A DNA stretch of 64,000 nucleotides from Patescibacteria group bacterium (GCA_035260845.1 DATFUL010000001.1:4245-68244), one strand, 5' to 3'. Counted from the stretch's first letter, positions 13,682 to 33,822 are shown. Numbers and translations are program-made. The notes: generated by a model not told the origin, from the letters alone.

Positions 13682-14770
13682 TTATTTGTACCCAAGTGGG
13701 ATTGTGGTAAGAACTAGGTTAAGAGCAATTCTTTTATCTTTTACATTAACATCCTCGATAACACATTTAACTTCTGACCCCATTACAAGTTTGTGAGTTG
13801 GTGGAATTTTGGTTATATGAATCAAGCCTTCTACTCCAGGTTCAATCTCAACAAATACTCCAAAGTCACTGATCCTAACAATTTTGCCCGTAATTTTGTC
13901 ATCAGCTTTATACTTCTTTTCGACCTCAAGCCATGGATCTTTTAATGCCTGCTTCATAGAAAGTGCAAGCTTACCAACATGAGAGGCTAGTACTTTTACA
14001 GAAACTTTATCGTTAACGGCCAAAACATCTGAAGGGAGATTGACTTTTTTGTAGGAAATTTCGGAAACGTGTACTAATCCTTCTAGACTTGTTTTACCAA
14101 CTGAGATTTTAACGAATGCCCCAAAAGGTGCAACGGTTGTTACAACACCGTCATAAATCTCGCCTTCCTTGATCTTTTTCAAAGCTTCTTTTGCTAGCTT
14201 GATATCCCCTGCTTCTGAGACTTCTTTCTCGGAAAGAACAACTTTCTTATTCATCCTATCTACTTCCATTACCTTAGCTTTAAAGTATTTACCTACCAAA
14301 TTTTGGGCTTCGGAAAGTGCAATCTTGCCCATTTGAGAAGTTGGAATAAATCCTTCGATTCCCATGACGTCCACAACAAACCCAGAAACGTTAACACCTT
14401 TACCCAAAACCGGCACTTCTTCGTTATTGTCCTTAGCTTTTGTAAGTTCAACCCAGCTTATGTCACGAATCGCATCTTTTAAGGCCAAAATAATTGTGCC
14501 ATCGCGTGTTTCTGGAACTAAAACTGTGGCCAAAACTTTGTCCCCCACTTTTAGGGTCTCAATAAACTCTTTAGCATCTGTGTAGGCCTTTTCTTTAACC
14601 AAGCCTTCGGACTTGCCGCCGATATCAAAAGTAACTAATGTTGGGGATTTTGTAAGCACAACTGCATCCACTCTTTGACCTTTTGTAAATATATTTACCT
14701 TGGATTTTGCCATGGCCAAAAGCTCGGCCATTGTTGTAGGCGTTTTAGACGAAGTTGATTTTGCAGCCAC
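13682..14770 (-). CDS. rpsA: Ribosomal protein S1-like protein (multiple S1 RNA-binding domains)
   Basis: Four repeated S1-domain units (for example GQRVDAVVL..., GKGVNVSGFVVDV, GEIYDGVVTTVAPFGAFVKI, GKIVRISDFGVFVEIEPGVEGLIHITKI). Confidence 0.7.
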   Translation of the reverse strand: MAAKSTSSKTPTTMAELLAMAKSKVNIFTKGQRVDAVVLTKSPTLVTFDIGGKSEGLVKEKAYTDAKEFIETLKVGDKVLATVLVPETRDGTIILALKDAIRDISWVELTKAKDNNEEVPVLGKGVNVSGFVVDVMGIEGFIPTSQMGKIALSEAQNLVGKYFKAKVMEVDRMNKKVVLSEKEVSEAGDIKLAKEALKKIKEGEIYDGVVTTVAPFGAFVKISVGKTSLEGLVHVSEISYKKVNLPSDVLAVNDKVSVKVLASHVGKLALSMKQALKDPWLEVEKKYKADDKITGKIVRISDFGVFVEIEPGVEGLIHITKIPPTHKLVMGSEVKCVIEDVNVKDKRIALNLVLTTIPLGYK

Positions 14771-14852
14771 TTTTAGTGTTTCCTTTCATTTTGGTAGGAG
14801 TATTTTACCCCAATCTGCATAAATTGACAAGGAGTGGAAGGAAAGATAAACT

Positions 14853-15386
14853 GTGAGCATGGCCGGAGATGGAACATCGACAGGAATAGATAATGAGAGT
14901 GCTGCATCGCATAATACCCCTCCTTTAGAAACAAACCCACAAATAGAAACCTCTCCTGATAGCACAGAGGCTATTAATAATTTTTTTAATCAGCCTTCCG
15001 AGAGAGATTTTAGTGTTCCACCAGATGTCGAGCAAAAACTTCGTGAGGCAGTTACTAAAAAGTATGCAAATATAACAGTGAATAACAGTGCGATACGTGG
15101 AGAACCTTATCTTACTGACATAAATCTTAAACCAGATTTAATTGAAGCCAAGAAAAGGGATATCTTTGAAAAACTTTTCGATGCGCGTGATCTTACCAAA
15201 TCTCTCCAAACATTCGAGGTAGATCTTCAAATAAGGGAAAACCTTTCAGATTTCATAAAAAATAATTTTAATCTAAGAGACAATCTTGAACCACTTGATT
15301 CAAACGCAAAGCGAAGTATGATGGAAAAGTGGTTGGGTACTCCATCTACACCCTCTAACGAGATACCGAACGAGCCAAAGCAATAA
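14853..15386 (+). CDS. Hypothetical acidic protein (177 aa)
   Basis: ORF only, no recognised motif. One of the few plus-strand genes in this region. Confidence 0.35.
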   Translation: MSMAGDGTSTGIDNESAASHNTPPLETNPQIETSPDSTEAINNFFNQPSERDFSVPPDVEQKLREAVTKKYANITVNNSAIRGEPYLTDINLKPDLIEAKKRDIFEKLFDARDLTKSLQTFEVDLQIRENLSDFIKNNFNLRDNLEPLDSNAKRSMMEKWLGTPSTPSNEIPNEPKQ

Positions 15387-15401
15387 TATCCTTCTGATTT
15401 T

Positions 15402-17207
15402 TTATGCTTTGTCTGACAAAAATCTAGAAGTGTTAAATTCTGTTGCCAGACCATTACTCTTCATTATTTCTACAATCTCCTTAAAAATAGGCTGTGCCTT
15501 GTTTACAAAAGACACATCGTGTTTTCCATACTTCTGAGTCAATAGAGACTCAGCAAAAATTTCAGCTAAAAACTCTTCGCTTGCATCATCCTGTACAAAT
15601 GTCTTAAATCGTTTTTGCAGTGTCTTCATATAATTATTCATAATTGCACCATTCTTTGATTCCGGTTTAAGGCCACAGGCCCGACTGAAATCATCAAATC
15701 GGTACAAAATTGCATGAGAAAAAATTAAGGGAAAAAGAAATTTTTCGCTTTTGTAATTTTCTAAAAAGTCACTATTAATATCATCTGCAGCTTCTAATAA
15801 AAGTGATGCCATAAACTTCGTACCTCCTTTGTACCCGGATATTTCGTTTTTAATCCTATCAACCATTCCTTGTATGCTGTCATCTTTTTCTGATATCTGA
15901 ATTGACTCCGACAAGTCCTCTTTTGTTAAAGCCTTCAAAGCTGTACTAAATTCAGCATAGATATCAACTGCAGATTCGGGCATATGCTGATAGTAATCAC
16001 AAACACTCCTTAAAAAATATCTTGTGACAGAAAACTCGTTGTCCTCATAATCTCCATGATTCCGGCCCTTGGCTCCAAAAATTGTTTTAAGACTAGAAAG
16101 CGGGTCAGCGGACTTTAATATTGAAAGTTCTAAATCTCTTACTTTTAATCTATCCTCAGTTGTAAGATACCCCCTACGGGAACTTATGGAGTGCCAAACT
16201 TCATGGACTATTACATGCAAAATTTCGCGCTCACGGCTTAGGTATTCACTTTTAGTTAGGGTGTTACTTTTCGGATAAAATATATTTGTCTTGTCGTTAT
16301 CTTGGTTTGTTGTTGCCCAGAGGTCGTAATCATAAACTAACTGAAGCTCATTGGTAGCACGATCTATCCCCAAAGTTTGTAATTCATCTCTGATTAGCCC
16401 CGATACTTCATTATCAAAATCCACAATATTTACTTCACGAGGGCGCTCTTTAGATGGACCATTTAGGTTATCCCCAATTGGGGGCTTTAAAGATGTCCCA
16501 CTTATATGTCTATCACCAGAAAAAAGATATGGCTCGAGGCCAAAAGCGTCCTCATAAAAAAGTGAGGATGCAATTGGGTTTGATACTTCGTTACCCAAAA
16601 CCATTCCCCGAATATCATAATTCCATACTGCTAAAATTTCTCTGCGTTTAACTGAATCTTCAAATATGGAATCTCTAAAATTAGATAAGTCTTCATCAAC
16701 ATTAGATTCATTCAATTGTTTAATAAATTCCTGATTTCCTATTTTTTCTCTATATTTCTCAAGAGATAAAAGCATATTGGCGTAAGAAGAGAGTTCGTAA
16801 TAACGCACCATTAGTGATTCGGCAATATTATCCATATTTTCAAGCTTTGCAATACTGCATTCGAGTCCCCTGGTAGCCACATTCAGCATAAGTTCTTTGA
16901 CATTGCCTTGGATTCTGTCTTTATTAAATGGAGCACTGCCTTCACTATCCTTTGTAACAAGTGGATAAACTTCACTATATAAATTAAAAATTTTATCCCC
17001 AACAATATTCACCAACTTTTCACCATCTTTACCCTGCCAAACTGTAGGATCGGATAAAAAGTTATCTTCGCCATAAGCTAGCTTTAATCCCTCATCAATA
17101 GATTGAGCTACCTGAACCGCCTTTGGAGCAAGTACTGTAGCGCCACCAATTAGAGTACCGAGCGCTGCAGCTTTTAAAAAATCACGCCTCGACAGTAATT
17201 TATCCAT
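15402..17207 (-). CDS. Tat-signal secreted protein with HExxH zinc-metallopeptidase-like motif
   Basis: N-terminus MDKLLSRRDFLKAAALGTLIGGATVLAPKA is a twin-arginine (S-R-R-x-F-L-K) signal. Internal HEVWHSIS is an HExxH motif. 601 aa. Confidence 0.55.
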   Translation of the reverse strand: MDKLLSRRDFLKAAALGTLIGGATVLAPKAVQVAQSIDEGLKLAYGEDNFLSDPTVWQGKDGEKLVNIVGDKIFNLYSEVYPLVTKDSEGSAPFNKDRIQGNVKELMLNVATRGLECSIAKLENMDNIAESLMVRYYELSSYANMLLSLEKYREKIGNQEFIKQLNESNVDEDLSNFRDSIFEDSVKRREILAVWNYDIRGMVLGNEVSNPIASSLFYEDAFGLEPYLFSGDRHISGTSLKPPIGDNLNGPSKERPREVNIVDFDNEVSGLIRDELQTLGIDRATNELQLVYDYDLWATTNQDNDKTNIFYPKSNTLTKSEYLSREREILHVIVHEVWHSISSRRGYLTTEDRLKVRDLELSILKSADPLSSLKTIFGAKGRNHGDYEDNEFSVTRYFLRSVCDYYQHMPESAVDIYAEFSTALKALTKEDLSESIQISEKDDSIQGMVDRIKNEISGYKGGTKFMASLLLEAADDINSDFLENYKSEKFLFPLIFSHAILYRFDDFSRACGLKPESKNGAIMNNYMKTLQKRFKTFVQDDASEEFLAEIFAESLLTQKYGKHDVSFVNKAQPIFKEIVEIMKSNGLATEFNTSRFLSDKA

Positions 17208-17414
17208 AATCTATTGTTGCATTAGAAGCTAATTTTTACCACTAAAAAATCCCCCAATTTCTTGGAGGATTAAGTCATAAAGAGATAACGCAAAATTTAT
17301 GATAATAAATTTTGTGAAGTTCACAATAGATTTCAAGAGCCACACAATAAGTTGTGTGAGTGATTGAACCTAGTGCCAAGAATTTTAAAAAATTCTTATT
17401 TTTTTAAGAACACT

Positions 17415-17533
17415 GTTCTGGCGATGAGCTATTTTCGCGGTAGGTTGCCCCACAACTATCGTCACCGCTACAGCGTTTCACTTCTAAGTTCGGAAAGGGA
17501 TTAGGTGGTTCCACTGCGCACTGATCACCAGAA
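17415..17533 (-). rRNA. rrf: 5S ribosomal RNA
   Basis: The reverse complement reads TCTGGTGATCAGTGCGCAGTGGAACCACC...CCGAACTTAGAAGTGAAACGCTGTAGCGGTGACGATAGTTGTGGGG...GCCAGAAC, matching the 5S consensus. Flanked by inverted repeats AGAACACTGTTCTGG / CCAGAACAGTGTTCT. Confidence 0.85.
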
Positions 17534-17596
17534 CAGTGTTCTTAAAGTTTTTTGTTTTATATTAAAAGAGAAAGGTCGCGTCCAGAGTGTGTCTGG

Positions 17597-20910
<3,314 letters not shown>

Positions 20911-21128
20911 GACACCATATTCGCACTGAATATGATCGGGACGCGACCTTCCTCTTCTAATTACACGTCAGAATCGTCTGACGTGACAAAAAAACTTAAA
21001 CTTCACAAAATTTATTATTAATAAATTTTGCGTTATTTCTTTATGTTAATGAGCAATTAGCTCTTGTTTACTTAACAGCTAAAGGACAGCTCCGATCAAA
21101 ATCGGAGCTCGCCTCTACCTACTAAGTG

Positions 21129-21201
21129 TGGACCCAGTGGGGGTCGAACCCACTACCTCGTCATTGCAAATGACGCGTTCAGCCAGTTAAACTTTGGGCC
21201 C
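21129..21201 (-). tRNA. tRNA-Ala (anticodon UGC)
   Basis: Reverse complement GGGCCCAAAGTTTAACTGGCTGAACGCGTCATTTGCAATGACGAGGTAGTGGGTTCGACCCCCACTGGGTCCA. The anticodon loop TTTGCAA gives UGC. G3:U70 and the A73 discriminator (Ala identity elements) are present. The T-loop is GGTTCGA. Confidence 0.85.
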
Positions 21202-21408
21202 AAGTTTAGCTTCCAAAGCCGCTATTTCTACTTTTAGGCTTGCTACATAATCTTGCAAAACTTTGAGCTCGCTACTTGCAAGTTCTCCTGATGCTGATTC
21301 ATGTGCAACTCCCCTAAAATGACTGAGTCTAAATTTTACTTTAGCCTCATATTCAGATAATTTTATTAAAAGTGCTTCCAGTTTTTCCTTGTCAGACAGT
21401 AGTTTCAT
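21187..21408 (-). CDS. Small coiled-coil ORF (73 aa) inside the rRNA spacer; possibly spurious
   Basis: ORF only. It overlaps the 5' end of tRNA-Ala by about 14 nt. A terminator-like hairpin lies just 5' of it on the minus strand. Confidence 0.2.
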   Translation of the reverse strand: MKLLSDKEKLEALLIKLSEYEAKVKFRLSHFRGVAHESASGELASSELKVLQDYVASLKVEIAALEAKLGPKV

Positions 21409-21580
21409 GGCAAAAATAAACCAGCTTTTTGAGCTGGTTAAACTTATTTTGAGGTCAAATCAAGATCAATTACGCACGCAAAATTGCGTTTGTTTTAGTT
21501 GAAATTAGATAAGTTCTCATTAAATAGCTTTGTTCCGACTCAAAGACTAGGGGCAAGTATAGCAAAATCAGATATTAGCG

Positions 21581-21883
21581 TCAAGTAGCTGCGGCAACAG
21601 GATCAATTCTGGTATAAATTACCGGATGATTGGCCAATTTGATCTTAACTGGACCACCTTTTAAAGGATTGTCGGCTCTAGTACAAGGCTCAAGAACTAC
21701 CCTTGCAACCATTGCTGAAGATATGCTTTTTCTATACTTAACTTCCTCATGTCCGGCAATACGTTCGGAGATATCAAAATTTCCTATAACGCGATTTTTA
21801 ATTAGTGGGCAACTTGCAACATAGTCGCAAGTAACTCCAGGTACGCACTCTACACGGACAGAAACATCAAATTCAATAGACAT
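21581..21883 (-). CDS. Hypothetical 100-aa protein encoded between tRNA-Ile and tRNA-Ala on the rRNA strand
   Basis: ORF with balanced composition and several Cys (CVPGVTCDYVASCP). No recognised motif. Confidence 0.35.
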   Translation of the reverse strand: MSIEFDVSVRVECVPGVTCDYVASCPLIKNRVIGNFDISERIAGHEEVKYRKSISSAMVARVVLEPCTRADNPLKGGPVKIKLANHPVIYTRIDPVAAAT

Positions 21884-22069
21884 AGGGGGTTATTATATCA
21901 CAAATCTCCCGATTATGAGGGCTTTTTATCTGATTTCAAAAACAGTCTTTCCCACTTTAAGACCAGGTGATCATGATCGTTGTGGATTGGCTATCTGAAT
22001 TTGGGCATTTTCTGCTACCTTATTAAACGCATTTATAAAATTCTCCTCACCCATTAATAAAGAGAGTTT

Positions 22070-22144
22070 TGGTGGGTGCGCATGGGATCGAACCATGGAC
22101 CTCGTTCTTATCAGGAACGCGCTCTACCACTGAGCCACGCACCC
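22070..22144 (-). tRNA. tRNA-Ile (anticodon GAU), 3' CCA encoded
   Basis: Reverse complement GGGTGCGTGGCTCAGTGGTAGAGCGCGTTCCTGATAAGAACGAGGTCCATGGTTCGATCCCATGCGCACCCACCA. The anticodon loop CTGATAA gives GAU. Confidence 0.85.
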
Positions 22145-22265
22145 AAAACGCAAAGCTATTTTACCATTCATTTGATGAATGGCCAAGATCCTCTCTTACC
22201 ACGAGAAATTTAAATCCACATGTACCGAAAGCCTAGATCTTCAATTTGCTATATAATATTCTTGT

Positions 22266-23330
22266 ATGCCTGCTCTCACCACCCTGCTTCTTAAACTTCC
22301 TCGTAATCAAGATATTACCCCTGAGGCTGCAAAAACATTTCTTTCTGCTTTAACTCAAATCAATTCTGTCTCTACTTTTCAGAGACTACTTGGGACCCGT
22401 CCCCACCCTTTGGCTCTTGAGATTGCTGCTATAAATCAGCAAATACAATTTTTAATAACTTGCGATAACGAACTTGTTCCTTTTGTAAAAACTCAGATTC
22501 AAAGCAGTTACCCACTAGTCATTATTGAAAAGGTAGAAGATCCAATCCTTAGTCGGGATATGGAAATTATCGAATTAAAACTTGCAAAAGGTAGTTATTA
22601 CCCTATTGGTACTTACGATAAATTTGCAGATGTTGACCCAATAAGTTCCACCCTCTCCGTATTGTCAAAGGTAGAACCTACAGAGTTTGCCATTATTCAA
22701 ATATCACTTGAGGGAACACGAGGCGTTTGGCAATCTAAAGCCAATCAGTATGCGGACCGCGGCGTTAAAAATGAAGATGGTAGTTATCAGCCAAGATCGG
22801 ATAAAAACATCATAATCGAGAAAACTTCTTACCCAGGTTTTAAAGTTTCCATACGACTAGCTAGCAGTGCAACCAAAACCGCAAAAGAACTTGTTAATGC
22901 TTTTGGTGTCTTTGCTAGAGCCGACGCCAACTTTTTTAAGAAGAATTCTTCCATTTTTAATTCAGTTAAAGCACTTAATAAGAATATAAAAATAAGAAAA
23001 GTTGTGGGGAATCAGGTTTTGAACATTATGGAACTAGCAACTCTTTGGCATTTGCCTTCCGAAAAAATTAAAGTAACAGGAATAGCTTGGGGAACATCAG
23101 TTCTTTCAGAACCTCCCGACAACCTTCCAAATGCAGTTACTGCTACAGAAGAGGAAAAAATCATATCAATTTTTTTGGTAAAACTATTTTCAAAAACCAC
23201 GATACAATTTTTGGAATCAAAGATATTGATCGCCGCCGGCATATTTGGTCAATTGGTAAAACAGGAACAGGAAAAAGCACCCTTATTGCAAACATGGCAA
23301 TTGACGACATTAAAAAAGGCAAGGGTGTAG
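22266..23330 (+). CDS. N-terminal portion of a HerA/FtsK-superfamily (DUF87-like) ATPase, likely joined to the downstream ORF by a -1 frameshift at a T7 tract
   Basis: Sensible protein sequence continues up to ...TATEEEKIISIF at the T TTT TTG heptamer (23171-23177). Downstream of that point this frame loses conserved motifs, while the -1 frame carries the conserved ATPase sequence. Confidence 0.5.
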   Translation: MPALTTLLLKLPRNQDITPEAAKTFLSALTQINSVSTFQRLLGTRPHPLALEIAAINQQIQFLITCDNELVPFVKTQIQSSYPLVIIEKVEDPILSRDMEIIELKLAKGSYYPIGTYDKFADVDPISSTLSVLSKVEPTEFAIIQISLEGTRGVWQSKANQYADRGVKNEDGSYQPRSDKNIIIEKTSYPGFKVSIRLASSATKTAKELVNAFGVFARADANFFKKNSSIFNSVKALNKNIKIRKVVGNQVLNIMELATLWHLPSEKIKVTGIAWGTSVLSEPPDNLPNAVTATEEEKIISIFLVKLFSKTTIQFLESKILIAAGIFGQLVKQEQEKAPLLQTWQLTTLKKARV

Positions 23331-24403
23331 CCATTATCGACCCTCATGGAGACTTGTGCGATGTAATAATGAACTATATTCCAAAGCACAGAATTAACGA
23401 TGTTATTTATTTTAATCCGGCTGACAAAGACTACCCGATAGTTATCAATCCCTTAGAAGTTACGAATAAAGAAGAGGCTGAGCTTGTTGTTTCCGGAATT
23501 GTTTCGATATTTAATAAAATCTTTGGTTTTTCCTGGGGACCCCGCTTGGAATATATTTTACGAAACGCCCTAACAACCCTAGCCGAAGTCCCAAATTCAA
23601 CTCTTAAAGATGTTTCGCTTCTTTTAACCAATCAAACTTTTAGGACCAGGGTGGAAAATAGCATTAAAGACACAACGATGAAACAATTTTGGCGAGATGA
23701 ATTTGACCAAATGACCGACAAATTAAGACAAGAGGCTATTTCGCCGATTTTAAATAAAGTTGGCCAGTTTGTCACTTCCCCACTCATAAGGTCGGTTATA
23801 GGCCAACCAAAAAGCTCAATCAAACTTGACGACATTATGAACGAAGGAAAAATCCTAATTGCTAACCTGTCACAAGGAAAGCTGGGTGAGGATAACGCTG
23901 CCCTTCTTGGAGCAATGTTAATTACCAAACTCCAGCTTGCTGCTATGCATAGAGTCGACATGAAGGAAGAAGATAGACGGGATTTTTATTTATATGTTGA
24001 CGAGTTCCAAAACTTTGCCACAGGAAGCTTTATTAAAATTATGTCTGAGGCCCGCAAATATCATTTGAATATTATGCTTGCTAACCAATATATGGCCCAA
24101 ATTCCTGAGGAAGTCAGAAAATCAATCCTAGGAAACGCCGGGACAATAATGACTTTGGCTGTTGGAGCAAGCGATGCCGAAATACTATACAAAGAACTTG
24201 CAGAGGTTTTTTCACAAAATGACTTAGTTAATCTAGGTAACCACCAAATTGCTGCCAAAATGACGATTGACGGCAAAACAACAAGGCCATTTTTGGGAGT
24301 CACCCTTCCCCTTGGAACTTCCAATAACCAAAACCGGGATACGGTAATCCAGGTAAGCAGGGAGCGCTGGACACAAAAATTAAACCCTCAAAATAACCCA
24401 TAG
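23087..24403 (+). CDS. HerA/FtsK-like P-loop ATPase domain (DUF87-type); the real N-terminus is probably supplied by the upstream ORF, and the TTG start is an ORF-caller artefact
   Basis: Walker A RRRHIWSIGKTGTGKS and DPHGD (IIDPHGDLCDV). Walker B FYLYVDEFQNF. ARKYHLNIMLANQ ... motif typical of HerA/DUF87 and TraG-D-like ATPases. The first 30 aa of this frame look non-protein-like (CSYCYRRGKNH). Confidence 0.65.
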   Translation: MGNISSFRTSRQPSKCSYCYRRGKNHINFFGKTIFKNHDTIFGIKDIDRRRHIWSIGKTGTGKSTLIANMAIDDIKKGKGVAIIDPHGDLCDVIMNYIPKHRINDVIYFNPADKDYPIVINPLEVTNKEEAELVVSGIVSIFNKIFGFSWGPRLEYILRNALTTLAEVPNSTLKDVSLLLTNQTFRTRVENSIKDTTMKQFWRDEFDQMTDKLRQEAISPILNKVGQFVTSPLIRSVIGQPKSSIKLDDIMNEGKILIANLSQGKLGEDNAALLGAMLITKLQLAAMHRVDMKEEDRRDFYLYVDEFQNFATGSFIKIMSEARKYHLNIMLANQYMAQIPEEVRKSILGNAGTIMTLAVGASDAEILYKELAEVFSQNDLVNLGNHQIAAKMTIDGKTTRPFLGVTLPLGTSNNQNRDTVIQVSRERWTQKLNPQNNP

Positions 24404-24439
24404 TTGAAAAATCCCCAATTTTTGGTATAATTCCGCTAG

Positions 24440-24481
24440 TCCCAAAACATCCCACTTTGCGGGAGGACTTTGGGTTTTTTA
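24440..24481 (+). terminator. Putative Rho-independent terminator after the ATPase gene
   Basis: cccaaaac atccc actttgc gggagg actttggg followed by tttttt. Confidence 0.4.
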
Positions 24482-24640
24482 GCACATTTACAAGAGAAGT
24501 AAGAGTTTGTCTCAGAACCTGTGGGCTCAAAAAATAGAGCCTAGAGGCTCTGAGGCAGACAGAGAAAAAAGGAAGGAAATTAGGGAAGAAATAGTAAGTA
24601 TTGTGAAATTTCAAAAACGTTCAAACAAAAGGAGAACGAA

Positions 24641-25495
24641 ATGAAGAAGTTCGTAAGTTTACTCGTAATAGCGGCCGTTGTGTTTGCAGCTGTGGCGGTA
24701 ATTGTACCAGCCCTTGCAAAGCCAGCCGACCCAGGTGGAAGTGTTTGCGATCAAGACCCGTCATGTGATATTGTTCCCCCCTCAGATTCAGGTACGTGGA
24801 CAGCACCAAGTTCAGTGACTGTATTTTGCGGTAAGTTAGGGAACGACAAAACGTGTTGGGGTCAAGGCACAAACAACGTTGTCAGTGGAGTTGATGGTGC
24901 GTGTTGGGACATGTCAGTAAATGGAAGTATTGTAACTTGGAATAGGTTGTCGACGTCGAACGTTTGCCAAGACCCCTCACATTTTGAAGGATCCTACGGC
25001 AGTTCGTCAACATCAACCACAGTTCCAGATACTCAAGTTCCGAATACGGCAACACAAGTTCCGAATACGGCAACCACAGTTCCAGATACTCAAGTTCCGA
25101 ATACGGCAACACTAGAAAATACTGAAGTTGCCAGTACGGGAACACCGATTAATACTGAGGTTGTTGATAATACATCAACTCCAGTACCAGCAGGTACAGG
25201 AACACCAGTTGTGAATACTCCAACTGATCCAGCTCCGACAGAAGAATCTGCTGTTGATCCAACGTATTGCGACCCTAACGACCACACCATTCACAACACT
25301 GTTGGTAGTATTCCGGATGGAATGCTAAAGGCGGATGACCCTGCCTGTAAACCAGCTGTAGTTGTGACCGAAAATTGGTGCACCGTGCATTTCGGTAAAG
25401 GGTCTTTGATATGGTGTCAGTGGGGAAAGGGAGGAACGGAAAGCCTGTGGGATATCTTTGTTACTAAAGTAACAAAGATGTTTCGTTCCCAGTAG
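24641..25495 (+). CDS. Secreted Cys-rich protein with tandem VP(N/D)T(A/Q)T repeats
   Basis: Strong Shine-Dalgarno sequence AAAGGAGAACGAAATG. Signal peptide MKKFVSLLVIAAVVFAAVAVIVPALA. About 16 Cys residues. 21-nt tandem DNA repeats encode TQVPNTATQVPNTATTVPDTQVPNTAT. Confidence 0.65.
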   Translation: MKKFVSLLVIAAVVFAAVAVIVPALAKPADPGGSVCDQDPSCDIVPPSDSGTWTAPSSVTVFCGKLGNDKTCWGQGTNNVVSGVDGACWDMSVNGSIVTWNRLSTSNVCQDPSHFEGSYGSSSTSTTVPDTQVPNTATQVPNTATTVPDTQVPNTATLENTEVASTGTPINTEVVDNTSTPVPAGTGTPVVNTPTDPAPTEESAVDPTYCDPNDHTIHNTVGSIPDGMLKADDPACKPAVVVTENWCTVHFGKGSLIWCQWGKGGTESLWDIFVTKVTKMFRSQ

Positions 25496-25523
25496 CGTAA
25501 AGAGGAAACAGGGATCTGCCCCC

Positions 25524-26594
25524 TTGTTTCTTCTCGGGATGCCGGGAGACTATCGGTATACCGATACTCCCCCCAACCCCCCCCTAACCCACCCTTTAAA
25601 AAAACTCACTTACTTCTCTTGCCATAATTTGACAACTAATTTTTTTGAAATTAATTGTGAAATTATGGATAGAAAAATAATGTATGCATCAGCTATAGCC
25701 ATTGAATTCTGGCTAGCTTCTTGTGCAAAACAACCAAAACCGATCTTAGCATCTGTAACACCAACGATTGCGCCTCCTGCTGAATTTACACCGACTAAAA
25801 CCGAAACCCCAATGCCAACTGCAACTGAAAGAGCCATAATTACAGTCGATGAACGTTTTAAACTTGGCAACTACGATGCGGCAGTCGATCAATTAACAAT
25901 AAAGGTCGGGAAAGAATTAAGAGATTTACTAGGATATTCACTTCTTGATTCCGGAAAGTTTAGTGTTGATATTCCGCTTGCTATTAAAAGTAATTCATTA
26001 GGTACTGAAGACCAATTCAGAATATTTGATGAAGGATCAAGAAATCGTAACAGTGATGTGGTTATGAAGGCGGCCAATGGCCGTGGTGGAAGCCATCCAA
26101 ACCCTGGCTACATAATCGCGCTTGATGCCTACCCTGGCAAAGAGCCAAAGGGTGTTGCAATTTATACCCACGATGTTCAAACTTTTCCATCCCCAGCCCC
26201 GACTGGTGACCTCGGCCTTGATATTTTGCAATGGGTAAGTAAGCATCCCGATAGAAAAGATGAGGTTAAGGGTAAGACGGCTGAGTTTTCCACCGACAAA
26301 GGTATAAGTTTTGAAGGCGAAATTGTTCATGCTGGTTATGTAAGTCAATATTTTTGGACAGGAGGAGATGGAAAAAATAGCCCATTTAGAACGTTCACAA
26401 GCGGTGACAATATTTTATTTGCAGACTCCGAAGCCCTCGGAATTCCACAAGATGTAGTTAAAGGTCTTGCAGAAGATGAATATTTAATAGTGATTGACAG
26501 TTGTTTAGGAGGAGACCCTGGAGAAACAACTGAAAGTATTAACGAAAATTCCAAAAACAGACTTGTTCTTGTCTTTAAAGTCAAAATAAAATAA
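25524..26594 (+). CDS. Hypothetical lipoprotein; probable true start at the internal Met around 25667-25682
   Basis: Internal MDRKIMYASAIAIEFWLASCAKQ carries a lipobox (LASC). No catalytic motif recognised. Confidence 0.45.
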   Translation: MFLLGMPGDYRYTDTPPNPPLTHPLKKLTYFSCHNLTTNFFEINCEIMDRKIMYASAIAIEFWLASCAKQPKPILASVTPTIAPPAEFTPTKTETPMPTATERAIITVDERFKLGNYDAAVDQLTIKVGKELRDLLGYSLLDSGKFSVDIPLAIKSNSLGTEDQFRIFDEGSRNRNSDVVMKAANGRGGSHPNPGYIIALDAYPGKEPKGVAIYTHDVQTFPSPAPTGDLGLDILQWVSKHPDRKDEVKGKTAEFSTDKGISFEGEIVHAGYVSQYFWTGGDGKNSPFRTFTSGDNILFADSEALGIPQDVVKGLAEDEYLIVIDSCLGGDPGETTESINENSKNRLVLVFKVKIK

Positions 26595-27400
26595 TGTCTG
26601 AAATTACTCCAAAAAAGATTGCCCTTTTTACCTTTGCAGCCGCATTGGGTGTAGCGGCTATTGCCCCAGTTGTTGCTAAAGCCATGGAAATAAATAATGA
26701 CAATAAGCCAAAACTTTTGACACAAGTACCGCCACTAACTTTTACACCTAACCCCACCCAAATTCCTAACGTGCACCAAACAGCATTCCCCACTCCATAT
26801 TTACTTGAAATAAAAGCCAAAATTCCAGTAGACATTCCTTTTTTTTCCCAGCTTGAACCCGTCTATAAGCAGATTTATTTCCAAGATGGAACTTCCTGGA
26901 GTAAGGTGGGTTGTGAAATTTTCGCGGGAGCAATGTTAGATAGAACCACTCCTAAAACCTATTATCAGAATTCATTGGATTACTTTGCCAAGCAGAGAAA
27001 AGACGGCACACAAAGATTTTCTAAAGATGGAAGCAGTTACGAAGATCTTATTGCTGTTTTGACAGACAAAGGTCACACATTTATAGAACTTTCCAAAGGA
27101 AATAACACAAAATTTGAAGATGTTAGGGCTTTAATTAAGAAATATACCGATCATGGTATTCCCGTATTGGTAAGGGGGGCTATTTGGCTTGGAAACGGCA
27201 CCCTAGGACATATGTCGGTTATTGTTGATGTCAATGAAAATGGAGGCTTAGTCTCAAATGACTCAATTTGGGGTAAAAATTACGTAATTGATGAATCAAA
27301 ATATCTTGAGGAAATAAAAAGTAGGGAAAGAGATGTAGACTCTACCAATAGCCTCAAGGTTTTCGCTGTTTACCCACCAACTACAGTTCCTACCCCTTAA
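26594..27400 (+). CDS. Secreted C39-like (papain-fold) cysteine peptidase domain protein
   Basis: Signal peptide. The IPFFSQLEPVYKQ...KVGCEIFAGAMLD segment resembles the VPxxxQ...xCGxAxxAM motif of peptidase_C39-like domains. A downstream candidate catalytic His lies in GTLGHMSVIVDV. Confidence 0.5.
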   Translation: MSEITPKKIALFTFAAALGVAAIAPVVAKAMEINNDNKPKLLTQVPPLTFTPNPTQIPNVHQTAFPTPYLLEIKAKIPVDIPFFSQLEPVYKQIYFQDGTSWSKVGCEIFAGAMLDRTTPKTYYQNSLDYFAKQRKDGTQRFSKDGSSYEDLIAVLTDKGHTFIELSKGNNTKFEDVRALIKKYTDHGIPVLVRGAIWLGNGTLGHMSVIVDVNENGGLVSNDSIWGKNYVIDESKYLEEIKSRERDVDSTNSLKVFAVYPPTTVPTP

Positions 27401-27411
27401 TTTTTCCACTA

Positions 27412-27455
27412 AAAAACCACCCCTTCACGAAGTGTGAATATTGAGGTGGTTTTAA
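27412..27455 (+). terminator. Putative Rho-independent terminator ending the plus-strand cassette, just before the 16S 3' end
   Basis: aaaaaaccacc cttcacgaagtg ... ggtggtttt hairpin with a T-tract. Confidence 0.4.
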
Positions 27456-27657
27456 ACTATGCACAGTATGACTGTCAAAGATTGGTTAACCGGTTAGAAT
27501 TCAATACCACTCCGCACAAAGGCGTCGGGTATTTCGTCTAACTACATGTTTTAGGACTCAAAATATGACTGAAAGCGTTTAAACCCGTTTTATTATTTTG
27601 ACAATTCAAAAAAGTCAAAACGGCGTTCTTAAAAACTGGGTGAAATTATCACTCCTT

Positions 27658-29125
<1,468 letters not shown>

Positions 29126-29363
29126 TAGTGCTAAAAATGGCATTTCAGCCATAGCTAGCGATCCTGCTTCCAGTCATATTTTGAATCCCAATACTGCTAG
29201 TATGGGTCGTTCCAAACTTCGCACAGAGGCTTGGAACACTTTGATTAACCTGAATCTTCGAAAGTAAAAGTACCCACAAATGAAGTTTTTACCCTGAAGG
29301 GAAGTTAACCTCCTACTCGAATATTGGTATTATATCACAGTGGAAAACATGGTCAATCCCAGA

Positions 29364-29555
29364 TCAACTATCCAGTCTAGATTTCATCAATTCTAAATCC
29401 TCAATTGTTGGTCTATCTTGCAATATTCTCACTCTGGCCTGACCTATACGTTTTACCTGGGCGTCCTTCGTTTTATTTCCAATTTGAATCAGCCTCATGG
29501 CATCGTGTATTTCTTGGGCATACTCTGCATCGTTAGGCTTTGGATTTTCAGTCAT
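29364..29555 (-). CDS. Small hypothetical protein (63 aa) upstream of 16S
   Basis: ORF only. Confidence 0.25.
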   Translation of the reverse strand: MTENPKPNDAEYAQEIHDAMRLIQIGNKTKDAQVKRIGQARVRILQDRPTIEDLELMKSRLDS

Positions 29556-29612
29556 GTTGGGAATTATATTCTTTTTGTATAGACTTTCAAACTAAGAAGT
29601 TGACGAATTAAT

Positions 29613-30041
29613 CTATCTCTCCCTCTTTCTAGGCTTGGTTAGGCTAAAAACTATGGAATATGAAGTTAGTACAAAAGCTATTCCCCCCACGATTAACATA
29701 GCTATTGGGATGTTGTAAACAGAAATCAGTTTTTTAGACGTTTCCCAAACTGAAATAGTAAAAATGGGAGTTAAAAGCAGAAAAAGTGTCAAGTCCTCAA
29801 TAGCAACTCCCATAACTTTTTTATTAAGAGTGGTCCTTGGGTTATATTCCCAAATGTAAAATTTGTCCTTTTTGCCCTGTCTTACAGCCCAAATTTCCAA
29901 AATTCCACCTACAAAAAATGTGGCAATTGTTACCATTAAAAGAGCTTTAATATCGAATGAGTGATAAACAAACGAAAGCATAATTATGGAAGGAATAGCC
30001 ATTAAAAGAATGTAAACCGAGAGAAACGAAAATCTCTTCAT
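29613..30041 (-). CDS. Small integral membrane protein (4 predicted TM helices)
   Basis: Hydrophobic helices throughout 142 aa. Confidence 0.4.
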   Translation of the reverse strand: MKRFSFLSVYILLMAIPSIIMLSFVYHSFDIKALLMVTIATFFVGGILEIWAVRQGKKDKFYIWEYNPRTTLNKKVMGVAIEDLTLFLLLTPIFTISVWETSKKLISVYNIPIAMLIVGGIAFVLTSYSIVFSLTKPRKRER

Positions 30042-30078
30042 ATACTTATATTAGCAAATAATATTGAATATTCTTAGA

Positions 30079-30435
30079 TTATCTTGTTTGAAGATCTAAT
30101 ACCGCTTTTCTGATTATACCGATTGAGGTGTCAGGGGAATTGCGGAGATTAACATCTCCCCAATCCTGCAATTGACCAGAAAAAGATATTATCTTTATAT
30201 TTGGAAAGTCCTGCCTTAGTTTTTGAGCTATACCTTTCCCCATACCCTCTCTTGGCATTCGGTCATCAACAATTGCAACAGTTGACCCAACTAAAGAACC
30301 ATCTTCCAACTTTTGCTTAAATTCGATTGCGGAGCTTATACTTGCAACAATTTCATGCTCGCGAGACAGTATACGGCTCAAAAGATCTAGCGTTGGCAAA
30401 TTGTCGTTAATCAATAACAATCTCTCATTATTCAT
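30079..30435 (-). CDS. Stand-alone receiver-domain (CheY-like) protein, degenerate
   Basis: LLLINDN ... VAIVDDRMP ... IISFSG ... IRK spacing resembles the receiver DD/D/T/K positions. Confidence 0.4.
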   Translation of the reverse strand: MNNERLLLINDNLPTLDLLSRILSREHEIVASISSAIEFKQKLEDGSLVGSTVAIVDDRMPREGMGKGIAQKLRQDFPNIKIISFSGQLQDWGDVNLRNSPDTSIGIIRKAVLDLQTR

Positions 30436-30474
30436 ATTTACTTAGGCGAATTCTACTCTGCCATAGTTATAAGT

Positions 30475-30993
30475 TCAAGGTAAAAGCTTTGCCATAAGAA
30501 TTCTACCTTCGTTATCTGGTTCTGAAACTTGCTCAAACCCAACTCTTTTATAGGAATTTATGGCCGGAAGATTATCTTTATTAGTTTCAAGCCAAATACA
30601 TTGATTTTTGATTTTTTTAAAATCCTCCGATCTTTTATACAACCTCATTGCTTCTTCAATAAAATTAGCAGAAAGCCCTTTCCCCCGAGCTTCCCCATAA
30701 ATTCTCACAGCAAATGTTATGCCATACTTACTAGAATCAAATTTATAAATAAACTTTTTTTTCGGTATTTCTTTTTCTCCAAACCAAACAATCCCAAAAA
30801 GATCATTAGAATTATCGCTCAAAATATAGACATTTCTCTCTTTTTTCCATTTCTCGTATGAGGACCTGTTTAAAAACCTCTTTGCATCAGAGGTAAATTT
30901 TCGAATAACAGAATCTGTATTTGAATAATAAATCAACTGATCAATTTGAAGATTACTAATACGCGAAGAAACTCCAAATTTGCCTATTCTCAT
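30475..30993 (-). CDS. GNAT-family N-acetyltransferase
   Basis: AVRIYGEARGKGLSANFIEEAM fits the GNAT motif A (R/Q-x-x-G-x-G/A). Confidence 0.55.
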   Translation of the reverse strand: MRIGKFGVSSRISNLQIDQLIYYSNTDSVIRKFTSDAKRFLNRSSYEKWKKERNVYILSDNSNDLFGIVWFGEKEIPKKKFIYKFDSSKYGITFAVRIYGEARGKGLSANFIEEAMRLYKRSEDFKKIKNQCIWLETNKDNLPAINSYKRVGFEQVSEPDNEGRILMAKLLP

Positions 30994-31011
30994 AGCGGTT
31001 TATTAATAATA

Positions 31012-31392
31012 CTAAAAATACCTTTTCGCAAAACCATCTGCTTCTTTTTCTTGTCTTTTAACCTCTGCCTTACTTTGCACTTTACCAATAGAATTTTTGT
31101 GTCCCAAGAGGGTGTGTCCAATCTCATGGGCAATAGTCCATTCTATTTGTTCTTCATCTTCACGTAATAGTTCGTCAGTTAAAAAAATTAAATATTCTCC
31201 CTTTTTAAGTTCGTCCCCTCTTAAAGTAAACGCCCAACCGTCTTCAAAAGAGCTTACAAACCAGGTTGTTTTGGCTACTTTTAAAATAATTTCTGTTGGA
31301 AAAAATTGGAGAGTTTTGGCAACCATTTTCTTCATATGGCTGTTGCCGATTAGTTTGTGTCCAAAGCGTCTTTCTATCTCTAAAATATTCAC
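31012..31392 (-). CDS. Small Zn-metallopeptidase-like protein (ImmA/IrrE-DUF955-type HExxH)
   Basis: Motif IAHEIGHTLLGH. Confidence 0.5.
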   Translation of the reverse strand: MNILEIERRFGHKLIGNSHMKKMVAKTLQFFPTEIILKVAKTTWFVSSFEDGWAFTLRGDELKKGEYLIFLTDELLREDEEQIEWTIAHEIGHTLLGHKNSIGKVQSKAEVKRQEKEADGFAKRYF

Positions 31393-31881
31393 TTACCCAG
31401 TTCTCCTTGTAAAACCAAAGTCGACTTTGTCTTGTTTTCCTGCCATTTTGACTTTAGCATCTTTACTTAAATCATAAACTGTAACTTTTGCATCCCCTAA
31501 AATAATCTTTTTTACCATATGCCCTAATTCTTTTTGATTTTCAATGTTTTGATCTTCTAAATCCCAAACAGTTAACTTATCGCCTAATTTATTTGTCCCC
31601 ATTAACGCATGGCTATTTTCACCTACCGAAATTCTAAGAATGGGCTCGGTTCTATCTGGAGCCATTATAAAAACGGCTCCGCCATACTCTTCCGACTTGG
31701 TAACATAGAATTTTGAGTTTGCAGAAGTTCCGGTCAATGAAATAAGCCTAGTTTGAAAAGATCTATCAAGAATGGGTTTTTCTATCAAACCACGAACTTC
31801 TTTATCTATTTCCTTAAGTGTAGGAACATACTGTACCTTTGATTCCTTATCGTGGGGGTGCTTCCAAAGAAGATCGATCAT
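31393..31881 (-). CDS. Hypothetical protein (162 aa)
   Basis: ORF only. It abuts the peptidase-like gene. Confidence 0.35.
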   Translation of the reverse strand: MIDLLWKHPHDKESKVQYVPTLKEIDKEVRGLIEKPILDRSFQTRLISLTGTSANSKFYVTKSEEYGGAVFIMAPDRTEPILRISVGENSHALMGTNKLGDKLTVWDLEDQNIENQKELGHMVKKIILGDAKVTVYDLSKDAKVKMAGKQDKVDFGFTRRTG

Positions 31882-31949
31882 TAACTTCGAGGTTACTCTA
31901 GCATTTTTACTTTGTCAACAAATTACAGACAAAGTGTATAATTCTAAGC

Positions 31950-32708
31950 ATGAGAAATAAAAGCACCTCTTGGCAAAAGGTTGCACCTTGGTATAACAAA
32001 GTGACCCGCGGTGGTGAAGGTCATTATTATCATCAGCATGTAGTGATTCCTGGAGTTCTTAAACTTCTCGCTTTATCCCCTGATTCAAATCTTTTAGACC
32101 TTGCTTGTGGTAACGGAGTTTTGGCCAAATCCTTACCCAAAAGTGTTAAATATACAGGTATTGATTTGGCCGATAGTTTGATTAAACATGCCAAGAACGA
32201 AGACAAAAATTATAATCATAAATATATCGTTTCAGATATAACTAAGCCACTAAATTTACCCGAAACTTTCACACACGCAGCAATTATCCTGGCATTACAA
32301 AATATAGAAGATCCCGAAGCAGTCCTAAGAAATGCGTCCAAATTATTAATTGGCAATTGTAAATTAATAATTGTGTTGAACCACCCCATGTTTCGTATCC
32401 CTAGGCAATCTTCTTGGGGAATTGATGAAGCCCGTAAAATTCAATACAGAAGAGTTGATAAATATATGTCCCCTATGGATATACCCATTAGAATGAATCC
32501 AAGTGACCCACAGAGCGAGCAAACAACGAGCTACCACTTCCCCCTTTCTGATTACTCAAAGATGCTTAAATCGGCAGGTTTTGTAATTGAATTAATTGAA
32601 GAGTGGACAAGTGATAAAGAAAGTGTGGGCAGGGCCGGAAGAATGGAAAATAGAAGTAGAAACGAAATCCCCTTATTTATGGCAATCAAAGCCTCAAAAA
32701 CAATTTAA
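31950..32708 (+). CDS. Class I SAM-dependent methyltransferase
   Basis: Motif I LLDLACGNGVLA and an acidic motif II (YTGIDLAD). Confidence 0.65.
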   Translation: MRNKSTSWQKVAPWYNKVTRGGEGHYYHQHVVIPGVLKLLALSPDSNLLDLACGNGVLAKSLPKSVKYTGIDLADSLIKHAKNEDKNYNHKYIVSDITKPLNLPETFTHAAIILALQNIEDPEAVLRNASKLLIGNCKLIIVLNHPMFRIPRQSSWGIDEARKIQYRRVDKYMSPMDIPIRMNPSDPQSEQTTSYHFPLSDYSKMLKSAGFVIELIEEWTSDKESVGRAGRMENRSRNEIPLFMAIKASKTI

Positions 32709-32718
32709 TATAGCGACT

Positions 32719-33135
32719 CTATTTTTTTATTGCTAATTTACCAAATGTATGTATTTTACCGGCGTTTCTGGGCAGTGTTTTTCGTTCCCCATCAGCAGTC
32801 CTTACCCTTATCCATTCCTCAAATGGTTTAGTATATTTTGGAGTACCCAGTAAATGTTCGGACAAAATTTTGGCCTCACTGTCCTCAAGTTCAGTTTTAT
32901 TTAATTCTCTAGAAAAAAGTGTCTGACTTAGAGCTCTGTATTTGGTATATGGCGACTCGAGTTTCTCATTAAACCTTTTTGCTTCATTAACCAACTCGCT
33001 TCCATAAATTTCCTCGAACTTTTGCACAATTTTAGGAAGTTCTTCTGCTTCAGTATTTACATGTCCGGATGGGTTAAGTGTTAATTCAAGAGCCATAAAT
33101 ATATTATAGCGGATCTGAGGGTTCGTAGGTTGCAA
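32719..33135 (-). CDS. Hypothetical protein (138 aa)
   Basis: ORF only. Confidence 0.35.
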   Translation of the reverse strand: MQPTNPQIRYNIFMALELTLNPSGHVNTEAEELPKIVQKFEEIYGSELVNEAKRFNEKLESPYTKYRALSQTLFSRELNKTELEDSEAKILSEHLLGTPKYTKPFEEWIRVRTADGERKTLPRNAGKIHTFGKLAIKK

Positions 33136-33700
33136 CGACTACACCTGTTGAAGTAATTTTTGAGTCTACTGGTTTAAAGTGCTGGGGTTGTGTGCCTTCG
33201 GCAAATAATTTTTTGCCAGTACCAATTGTAATGGGATATGTCCAAATGTGCATTCTGTCTATTAGGTTATTTTTAAGAAGTGTTTGTATAAGCTTGCTAC
33301 TTCCCCACACCACCAGCTCTGGCCCATCCGTATTCTTAAGCTTTTTTATTTTGCTAACAACTTCCCCTGTAATAATCTCGGAATTACTCCATGCGGGGTC
33401 AAAAGGCTTATGAGCTACAACATACTTTGTCGCCTTATCAAATGGCTTTCCCCAAACCGGTTCGTCTTTGTGCTGGGGCCAATAACCAGACCAAATATCA
33501 TAAGTGAGCTTTCCTAATAGAAGATCAAAAGGGGCAGCCATAAATTTGGTCATTATACTATCTGCTACTTTGTCTTTTTGTTCCCAGGCCAACTGCCAAC
33601 CTCCGTATTTAAATCCTCCAGAGGTATCTTCTTTGGGGCCACCAGGGGCTTGCATAACGCCGTCAAGGGTGACGAACGTAATTGTAATAATTTTCCTCAT
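33104..33700 (-). CDS. Dihydrofolate reductase-like (RibD C-terminal domain family) protein
   Basis: N-terminus MRKIITITFVTLDGVMQAPGGP...GGW is typical of RibD_C/DHFR-like proteins. Confidence 0.6.
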   Translation of the reverse strand: MRKIITITFVTLDGVMQAPGGPKEDTSGGFKYGGWQLAWEQKDKVADSIMTKFMAAPFDLLLGKLTYDIWSGYWPQHKDEPVWGKPFDKATKYVVAHKPFDPAWSNSEIITGEVVSKIKKLKNTDGPELVVWGSSKLIQTLLKNNLIDRMHIWTYPITIGTGKKLFAEGTQPQHFKPVDSKITSTGVVVATYEPSDPL

Positions 33701-33751
33701 TTAAATAATTCTACCATTTTTATAATGGCTCAAACCAAGCTTGCTGAAGTG

Positions 33752-33822
33752 CTGGGAGACCAGGATTCGAACCTGAATAAACAGCTCCAAAGGCTGTTGT
33801 CCTACCGTTAGACGATCTCCCA
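33752..33822 (-). tRNA. tRNA-Gln (anticodon UUG)
   Basis: Reverse complement TGGGAGATCGTCTAACGGTAGGACAACAGCCTTTGGAGCTGTTTATTCAGGTTCGAATCCTGGTCTCCCAG. Loop CTTTGGA gives UUG. U1:A72 is typical of bacterial tRNA-Gln. Confidence 0.8.

Follow-up and report, generated by a model that had tools for sequence, protein, structure and literature searches.

Organisation of the split rRNA locus

We analysed the ribosomal RNA (rRNA) genes in a stretch of 64,000 nucleotides (nt) from a Patescibacteria group bacterium (GCA_035260845.1, DATFUL010000001.1:4245-68244), hereafter the window, in which the 16S gene is split from the tRNA-Ile, tRNA-Ala, 23S and 5S genes by an ATPase gene and three further genes read from the other strand. 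By sequence, the source is a bacterium of the Patescibacteria (Candidate Phyla Radiation, CPR), of the Microgenomates/Woesebacteria type. RNA genes were located with Rfam and, for the tRNAs, ARAGORN. The genes for 5S, 23S, tRNA-Ala, tRNA-Ile and 16S were all found on the minus strand (Table 1). The gap between tRNA-Ile and 16S (22145-27659, 5.5 kb) is occupied by open reading frames (ORFs) on the plus strand, and the spacer of 868 nt between tRNA-Ile and tRNA-Ala also holds minus-strand ORFs and a promoter-like site.

An earlier note on this DNA had described the separation of 16S from the other rRNA genes by 5.5 kb of plus-strand coding sequence, and Rfam, ARAGORN and the ORF calls confirmed it. 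Its plus-strand ORF coordinates were reproduced exactly. The local signals that it named were also present: a -10-like TATAAT at 22252-22257, 8 nt ahead of the ATG at 22266; a strong Shine-Dalgarno sequence, AAGGAG, ahead of 24641; a hairpin with a T-run at ~24441-24481; and a hairpin with A- and T-tracts at 27410-27453. The count of five genes was reduced to four, as the first two ORFs (22266-23330 and 23087-24403) are a single frameshifted gene.

Table 1. Features of the split rRNA locus, in window coordinates, with the basis of each call.
Feature	Position	Strand	Basis or remark
Terminator-like hairpin past 5S	17271-17248	minus	terminator scan
5S rRNA gene	17416-17532	minus	Rfam RF00001, 82.7 bits
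23S rRNA gene, 3311 nt	17596-20906	minus	Rfam RF02541, full model covered
23S processing stem, 5' arm	20937-20960	minus	pairs with ~17563-17585 between 23S and 5S
tRNA-Ala(UGC)	21128-21201	minus	ARAGORN and Rfam
ORF of 73 amino acids (aa), coiled-coil-like	21187-21408	minus	tblastn conservation
Terminator-like hairpin and T-run, end of leader module	21419-21439	minus	terminator scan
Promoter-like site TTGACG-17-TG-TATACT, tRNA-Ala/23S/5S unit	21556-21584	minus	promoter scan
ORF of 100 aa between tRNA-Ile and the 23S-unit promoter	21581-21883	minus	ORF call
tRNA-Ile(GAU)	22070-22144	minus	Rfam and ARAGORN
Weak promoter-like site of tRNA-Ile's own	22158-22186	minus	promoter scan
TATATAAT -10 element of the ATPase gene (TATAAT 22252-22257)	22250-22257	plus	read from sequence
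DUF8128 and VirB4/VirD4-like P-loop ATPase gene, 712 aa after frameshift repair	22266-24403	plus	homologues, Pfam, Foldseek
Frameshift site, A6 run	23155-23160	plus	tblastn and three-frame translation
Secreted/surface protein gene, signal peptide and Thr/Pro-rich repeat linker	24641-25495	plus	hydrophobic N-terminus
Putative lipoprotein gene	25524-26594	plus	start probably near 25665, motif LASC
Gene for a protein with an N-terminal signal or anchor segment	26594-27400	plus	
Hairpin between A-tract and T-tract	27410-27453	both	terminator scan, fold energy
16S processing stem, 3' arm	27541-27576	minus	pairs with 29166-29201
16S rRNA gene	27660-29128	minus	Rfam RF00177, 1372 bits
Promoter-like site TTGACC-16-TG-TATAAT, 16S unit	29329-29356	minus	promoter scan

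At 6753 nt, the distance from the 16S 3' end to the 23S 5' end lies well outside the linked class, for which the thresholds of Brewer et al. and Lui et al. are <~1.5-2 kb. A canonical operon would moreover hold only tRNAs or same-strand elements in its spacer, where the window has four plus-strand genes. The locus falls into the 'unlinked by distance' type of Lui et al. 2021 (Fig 3D), including the property that the trait is common to the phylogenetic neighbourhood.

Conservation of the arrangement among relatives

One genome per GTDB species was scanned with the C-terminal half of the ATPase, which yielded 34 loci at 68-82% identity (given here by L numbers). The rRNA and tRNA genes of the window were compared with these loci by blastn, and their tRNAs were called by ARAGORN. 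The 16S gene was found on the opposite strand, tail-to-tail with the ATPase gene and 104-6642 nt past its stop codon, in 26 of the 34 loci. Of the eight loci lacking 16S, five have contigs that extend for less than 2.8 kb in that direction. Upstream of the ATPase gene, tRNA-Ile was present in 29 loci, and tRNA-Ala and 23S on the rRNA strand in 22. Three loci belong to complete chromosomes (CP066686, CP066693 and OY970314).

A more distant set was obtained by scanning metagenome contigs with an alignment of ATPase relatives of 33-54% identity, which gave 80 loci. Where the C-terminal half of the ATPase was at least ~62% identical to that of the window, nine of 12 loci showed linkage to rRNA or tRNA-Ile, compared with none of the 68 distant metagenome loci below ~62%; rRNA linkage is thus not a property of the whole ATPase family. 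Within the linked loci, 16S identity to the window falls to 74-80%, which marks the linkage as an old, clade-specific trait. In its most compact form (L046), the locus consists of 16S, 95 nt, the ATPase gene, 70 nt, tRNA-Ile and tRNA-Ala; its span of ~2.9 kb agrees with 2872 bp, the smallest 16S-23S distance published for Microgenomatia.

The orientation of tRNA-Ile differed among relatives. Of the 29 loci with this gene upstream of the ATPase gene, 17 carry it on the ATPase strand (named as L002, L003, L005-L007, L010, L012, L013, L018, L019, L021-L026, L031 and L032); the remaining 12, like the window, carry it on the rRNA strand (set against the former are the window, L004, L009, L011, L014-L017, L028-L030 and L034). 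The most divergent linked loci (L028-L030, L034, L046, L051, L058 and L060) retain the rRNA orientation, which makes the inversion look derived.

The earlier note had called the arrangement very unusual. The same ATPase gene in the same place and orientation in 26 of 34 related species genomes, and in nine more distant metagenome loci, gives this no support: the split locus is a real feature that is ordinary for its lineage, and it is no new kind of genetic element. We hold, with a probability of about 0.85, that it is an inherited, clade-wide layout of separate transcription units with the ATPase gene fixed between them, and not a recent insertion. The position of the ATPase gene, which runs antisense to the rRNA genes between 16S and tRNA-Ile/tRNA-Ala/23S, would date back to the common ancestor of a large clade.

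Identity, promoter and reading frame of the ATPase gene

Homologues of the ATPase are 700-790 aa long and 77-86% identical, with more than 8000 matches. Those that carry a name are Patescibacteria, Microgenomates or Woesebacteria, save for a few apparently mislabelled metagenome-assembled genomes, and the family comprises 22105 clusters at 50% identity. The protein matched the Pfam domains TrwB_AAD_bind, DUF87/HerA and TraG-D_C, with DUF8128 on its N-terminal part. Scores were 39.7 bits for PF10412 (cut-off 20.5) and 32.2 bits for PF12696 (cut-off 22), and the Walker motifs GKTGTGKS and YVDEFQNF were present. A PDB sequence search matched solely the Walker A region of TrwB. The AlphaFold model was of moderate confidence (predicted local distance difference test, pLDDT, 66.5), with a well-predicted N-terminal domain. 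Its best Foldseek match was TrwK/VirB4 (E = 2e-7, whole length), followed by TrwB (E = 1e-4, C-terminal half); template modelling scores (TM-scores) to TrwK and TrwB were 0.3-0.55 at 9-14% sequence identity, and the ATPase half of the model was of low confidence.

The product of 22266-24403 is probably a soluble type IV secretion-type ATPase with a putative cellular role in nucleic-acid or protein translocation, a role label taken solely from domain and fold similarity. It shares the P-loop domain with both VirB4 (TrwK) and VirD4 (TrwB), and its layout of an N-terminal alpha/beta and a C-terminal ATPase domain resembles VirB4. VirD4 has a transmembrane segment, whereas no hydrophobic or N-terminal membrane segment was found in the window ATPase, the maximum Kyte-Doolittle value over 19 residues being 1.39 and falling within the ATPase domain. 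The window protein is set apart from both by its N-terminal DUF8128 domain and by its surroundings: among the Pfam and NCBIfam matches within 21.2-27.4 kb, which cover this locus only, there was no other type IV secretion component, and the 5.5-kb segment has no further type IV secretion genes. A PADLOC match to mad8 of the MADS anti-phage system (E = 3e-18) was rejected as an identification: it covers the ATPase domain only, the neighbouring genes have no PADLOC match and the partner mad genes, which include a methyltransferase, are absent.

The TATAAT ends 8 nt ahead of the ATPase ATG, and there is no Shine-Dalgarno sequence, which suggests a promoter of the leaderless type. Among 32 loci, TATAAT ended 5-10 nt ahead of the ATPase start codon in 26 and a Shine-Dalgarno sequence was found in none, a pattern that would be the signature of a leaderless mRNA.

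As assembled, the reading frame of the ATPase gene is broken between its two ORFs by a 1-nt deletion in an A-run. Alignment to an intact homologue by tblastn and three-frame translation placed A6 where A7 keeps the frame, between EEEK and NHINFFGK. The gene was intact in all 33 full-length relatives. The A6 sequence was identical in the ENA, JGI and Logan assemblies, which match the window at 100% over 3-7.8 kb, and the frameshift is not an assembler artefact. Samples JGI 3300026320, SRR10360641 and ERZ27286494 contain this population. The assemblies may share population or reads with the window, and they do not show the age of the frameshift. The two halves of the gene had undergone no further decay: they were 59% (N-terminal) and 83% (C-terminal) identical to L001, with no extra stops. 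Recent inactivation, a homopolymer error in the reads and rescue by slippage are all possible. Programmed -1 frameshifting at the A-run was considered and set aside: read in the zero frame, the site does not form the canonical X XXY YYZ heptamer.

Predicted signals for separate transcription units

Gene order and its conservation are direct observations, whereas the promoters, terminators and leader described below are predicted from conserved signals. The candidate 16S promoter (29356-29329) is near-consensus, has an extended -10 element and lies 200 nt upstream of 16S. Sites of this type occur ~200 nt upstream in L021 and L034 and 362 nt upstream in L016. The 16S gene is enclosed by an inverted repeat of 36 nt (29166-29201 with 27541-27576, 81% complementary). 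The 23S stem had a duplex energy of -50.2 kcal/mol, compared with -25.0 +/- 3.6 for shuffled sequences. RNAduplex on flanks of 200-260 nt inflates whole-length structure, and core helices and shuffle z-scores were used for this reason.

Past the 16S 3' end, at a distance of ~210-250 nt, the hairpin at 27410-27453 (-19.6 kcal/mol) is followed by U6, with a minus-strand scan match at 27434-27418. It looks like a bidirectional terminator that would serve both the plus-strand genes and the 16S transcript. Terminator-like hairpins with a stem of at least 7 pairs were present within 450 nt past 16S in 18 of 27 loci, compared with 91 of 600 random control windows from the same loci. On the 23S side, 23 of 24 loci had a TTGAC[GCT]-17/18-TATAAT site (10-11 of 12 positions) at a distance of 145-545 nt ahead of tRNA-Ala. 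The tRNA-Ile gene is on the other strand in 17 relatives, and a single precursor running from 16S to 5S is therefore not a general rule of the clade.

At least four separate transcription units are favoured by these signals, though not proven. One would start at the promoter at 29356-29329 and run through a leader and 16S, inside its own processing stem, to the terminator at 27453-27410. The tRNA-Ile gene would form a unit by itself. A third would run from the promoter at 21584-21556 through the conserved leader, the small ORF, tRNA-Ala, 23S in its own stem and 5S to a terminator. On the other strand, the ATPase gene would be expressed from its leaderless-type promoter, followed by a variable slot of secreted or surface protein genes, as far as the shared bidirectional terminator.

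A conserved leader ahead of tRNA-Ala

A conserved leader module of ~120-170 nt lies between the promoter-like site and tRNA-Ala (~21410-21550, minus strand and ~140 nt long in the window), with equivalents in 20 related loci. It is made up of a near-invariant cTTAATGA(G/A)AA, a GCGC...TGCGTGG hairpin, a TAACGGAAATTAG motif and a terminator-like hairpin with a T-run. The terminal hairpin is conserved in the 20 loci, with compensatory changes at two of its five pairs, and was the only structure that RNAalifold recovered from the 20 leader sequences. No Rfam family for the leader was found in a search of 20900-22300 at E <= 1.

The motifs appear to resemble the boxB/boxA/boxC layout of rRNA antitermination leaders; if this likeness holds, the hairpin would have to be read through to make 23S. 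Besides an antitermination leader, the module may represent an attenuator or a separate small RNA. A leader peptide is a further alternative, though a weaker one than the small RNA: for the ORF of 16-17 codons that starts at the ATG in TTAATGA, the post-stop TAACGGAAATTAG is conserved whether it falls inside or outside the ORF. A search of the 16S leaders for a boxA-like motif gave no clear shared motif, and a different conserved element, AGGTTAATACAA, is present there. Upstream of 16S in L005, L016, L022 and L025, we observed a promoter, ATGAGAAAGTGACCAGATG and a hairpin with a T-run, an echo of the tRNA-Ala module.

The 73-aa ORF overlaps tRNA-Ala by 15 nt (~12-15 nt across the loci). By tblastn it was 56-85% identical at the amino-acid level in 14 related loci (L002, L003, L006, L007, L010, L012-L019 and L024), which form one subclade with the window, and it was always directly upstream of tRNA-Ala. 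It matched no Pfam family; it would be a protein gene that is apparently co-transcribed with tRNA-Ala-23S-5S. The 100-aa ORF had no homologue in the related loci and no family match.

A joint reading of the ATPase gene and the leader would have the ATPase held in the rRNA locus for its function and the tRNA-Ala leader acting as an attenuator that sets 23S/5S independently of 16S. The position of the ATPase gene would then be more than frozen synteny: its leaderless-type promoter and those of the tRNA and 23S are back-to-back, and its expression could thereby be tied to rRNA synthesis. The attenuator would consist of the promoter, a boxA-like TTAATGAGAA motif and the terminator-like hairpin, with the 73-aa ORF added in one subclade. 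We regard this joint reading as tentative and rather unlikely; if true, rRNA synthesis in CPR bacteria would have, in the leader module, a control element that has not been described before.

A variable slot behind the ATPase gene

The slot between the ATPase gene and 16S ranged from empty to ~6.6 kb across loci. For the three slot genes of the window (24641-27400), the only homologues in the 34 loci were two distant genes of L031 that occupy the equivalent place, with 24% identity to the 25524-26594 product and 35% to the 26594-27400 product. Two families of secreted proteins with Thr/Pro-rich linkers recur in the slot of many relatives; F1 was present in 11 loci and F2 in six. The 24641-25495 product matched the F1 profile weakly (E = 3.6e-7), and all three slot proteins of the window have N-terminal signal, anchor or lipobox-like segments. 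In the first slot protein, the Thr/Pro-rich linker comes from imperfect 45-nt tandem repeats at 25014-25148. The G+C content was slightly raised, to 0.45-0.46, across 24500-25500, which coincides with this repeat coding. Three other assemblies of the population stop at or just before the tandem repeats (24765-25055).

Directly past the ATPase stop codon, a promoter-like site matching 11 of 12 positions was seen on the plus strand at 24404-24431, with the compound hairpin and T6 at 24441-24481 within 10 nt of it. A purine-rich leader of 160 nt follows this hairpin up to the next gene; the arrangement as a whole may be a regulatory leader or a chance match.

Searches of Pfam, NCBIfam and PADLOC gave no integrase, transposase or recombinase for any ORF of 21187-27400, and the same databases gave no family match beyond the ATPase for the genes of the segment and the small spacer ORFs, even at E <= 1. 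Direct or terminal inverted repeats around 22145-27659, for which the earlier note had advised a search, were limited to short chance-level pairs between 20900 and 29400, and none bracket the segment. Presence across the clade was steady for the ATPase gene and patchy only for the three genes downstream, so that the segment as a whole does not behave as a mobile island. We read the slot as a putative fast-evolving place for surface proteins beside a fixed core gene, and not as a mobile cassette.

Alternative explanations

The earlier note had suggested that the segment may be a recently inserted accessory element. On this view, an accessory or mobile cassette entered a formerly compact 16S-23S spacer. 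The near-absence of homologues of the three slot genes, the changing size of the slot, the small G+C rise and the mad8 match could each be taken in its favour. However, the ATPase gene accounts for 2.1 of the 5.5 kb and is a core gene whose exact position and orientation are kept across the clade. No repeats bound the segment, no mobile-element family lies within it and there is no strong compositional break, the G+C rise falling on Thr/Pro-rich repeat coding. The mad8 match is limited to the ATPase domain and has no partner genes, and the recurrence of F1 and F2 in relatives, with the weak F1 match in the window, fits fast divergence in place. A recent insertion is not supported, because related genomes hold the same gene at the same position and unlinked rRNA is the lineage norm, and we consider it highly improbable. 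That the window is a chimera, in which a 16S contig was joined to a 23S contig through unrelated DNA, has next to no chance of being true. Although rRNA genes are frequent points of breakage and misjoining in metagenome assemblies, and other assemblies of the population break within the repeats at ~25050, the window and the ENA, JGI and Logan assemblies agree at 100% identity from 17294 to 25055, across the junction of tRNA-Ile and the ATPase gene. This excludes a false join at 22.2 kb, which the earlier note had named as a possible refutation. The junction on the 16S side is outside those contigs, yet the same order recurs in 26 independent genomes, with three complete chromosomes among them.

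The remaining alternative is co-transcription, in which one long pre-rRNA would run from the 16S promoter, antisense through the plus-strand genes, to 5S and then be processed. The canonical order of the rRNA and tRNA genes on one strand agrees with it. Several observations of our own also weigh against the favoured reading. Every promoter and terminator here is a consensus match backed by conservation only, and a 16S promoter of at least 10 of 12 positions was present in just four of the 13 loci with enough upstream sequence. Local processing stems occur in linked operons too and do not discriminate between the two. No canonical terminator was found where the ATPase stop codon lies 95-148 nt from 16S (L016, L017, L029, L030, L046 and L050), and convergent read-through is possible in these minimal-gap loci. 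The hairpin at 21439-21419 follows the upstream site of tRNA-Ala, whose role as a 23S promoter is putative, and 23S transcription from that site would have to read through this hairpin. Finally, the frameshifted ATPase copy may be non-functional in this genome. Against a single precursor stand the hairpin and U-tract past 16S in the window and in 18 of 27 loci, the near-consensus promoter ahead of tRNA-Ala in 23 of 24, and the 17 relatives in which tRNA-Ile, being on the other strand, cannot derive from such a precursor. The precursor would also have to cross 5.5 kb of convergently transcribed genes, and the layout has been classed as unlinked in publication (PMC8172020). We judge co-transcription very unlikely. 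The earlier note had left two alternatives, a pre-rRNA spanning the segment and the uncoupling of 16S from 23S-5S; the conserved terminator and promoter signals speak against the former, and it is the latter that gained support.

Other features of the window

The 23S gene contains an insertion of ~363 nt (~17880-18242) with a group I intron (Rfam RF00028, 17927-18168, 58.5 bits). The corresponding 23S positions 2665-3027 are absent in L005, L014 and L015, which join 2664 directly to 3028. The intron is too short to code for a homing endonuclease. Various 23S insertions were seen in relatives, and eight of them (L002, L003, L007, L008, L013, L018, L030 and L034) have 16S insertions of 700-900 nt near window-16S positions 1340-1345 and 1426; the 16S gene of the window has no insertion.

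The flanks (11386-17207 and 29364-34813) hold ordinary housekeeping genes, among them those for a RadA-like ATPase, an S1-domain protein, a SpoU methylase and a RibD_C protein. A tRNA-Gln/Lys/Glu cluster in the flank also adjoins 16S in L005, L016, L030 and L053. The 15402-17207 product is a protein of 601 aa with a twin-arginine translocation (TAT) signal and no family match.

Significance and comparison with known systems

For annotation and amplicon work, the locus is a caution that 16S and 23S do not form one operon in this large CPR clade; full-operon amplicons (16S, internal transcribed spacer and 23S) would run 3-10 kb over expectation or fail. The order 16S, ATPase, tRNA-Ile/tRNA-Ala/23S is a very stable synteny marker for a deep Microgenomatia clade, and the ATPase gene draws attention to a protein of unknown role that ranks among the most conserved of its kind in this group. 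The loci also supply a clean natural collection of promoter, leader and terminator signals, independent of one another, from organisms that do not grow in culture.

Brewer et al. (10.1101/705046) report that rRNA genes are often unlinked in Patescibacteria, and the 'unlinked by distance' type is that of Lui et al. 2021 (PMC8172020). The 16S-23S distances published for Microgenomatia, 2872-8985 bp, bracket that of the window. Unlinked rRNA in Microgenomatia at 2.9-9 kb is thus already known. The window shares with the Microgenomatia of both papers a clade-specific trait, but the papers give distances and categories and not the identity of the intervening gene, whereas here the same DUF8128 and VirB4/VirD4-like ATPase recurs clade-wide, with a putative leaderless-type promoter and a variable secreted-protein slot behind it. 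In the searchable literature, we found neither a name for the intervening gene nor its conservation, and its identity appears to be undescribed. What the locus adds is the ATPase as the gene in the gap, at a fixed position and with a leaderless-type promoter, together with a tRNA-Ile that flips among relatives and a conserved leader upstream of tRNA-Ala.

The Microgenomates genome Ch65 (Kadnikov et al. 2020, PMC7143001) is similar to the window: its only rRNA cluster is interrupted by protein genes, has trnI-GAU and trnA-UGC placed between 16S and 23S, and includes an intron in 23S. It differs in having two protein genes between the tRNAs and in belonging to the order UBA1400, and an ATPase gene between 16S and tRNA-Ile was not reported. 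In Borrelia (PMC4370689, Fig 1), 16S lies apart from 23S-5S, with tRNA-Ala past 16S and tRNA-Ile in the opposite orientation ahead of 23S-5S. This inverted tRNA-Ile parallels about half of the relatives, whereas tRNA-Ile of the window keeps the rRNA orientation. Borrelia differs further in its duplicated 23S-5S cassettes and its other intervening genes, and is an unrelated organism with another type of chromosome. Another case of a conserved protein gene at a split locus is that of Rickettsia, in which fmt stands beside the unlinked 23S gene. In Helicobacter pylori, 16S is reported to be transcribed and matured separately from 23S-5S (PMC6582327). The units of H. pylori and Rickettsia are far apart on the chromosome, whereas those of the window lie within 7 kb, in their original order, with one conserved gene between them.

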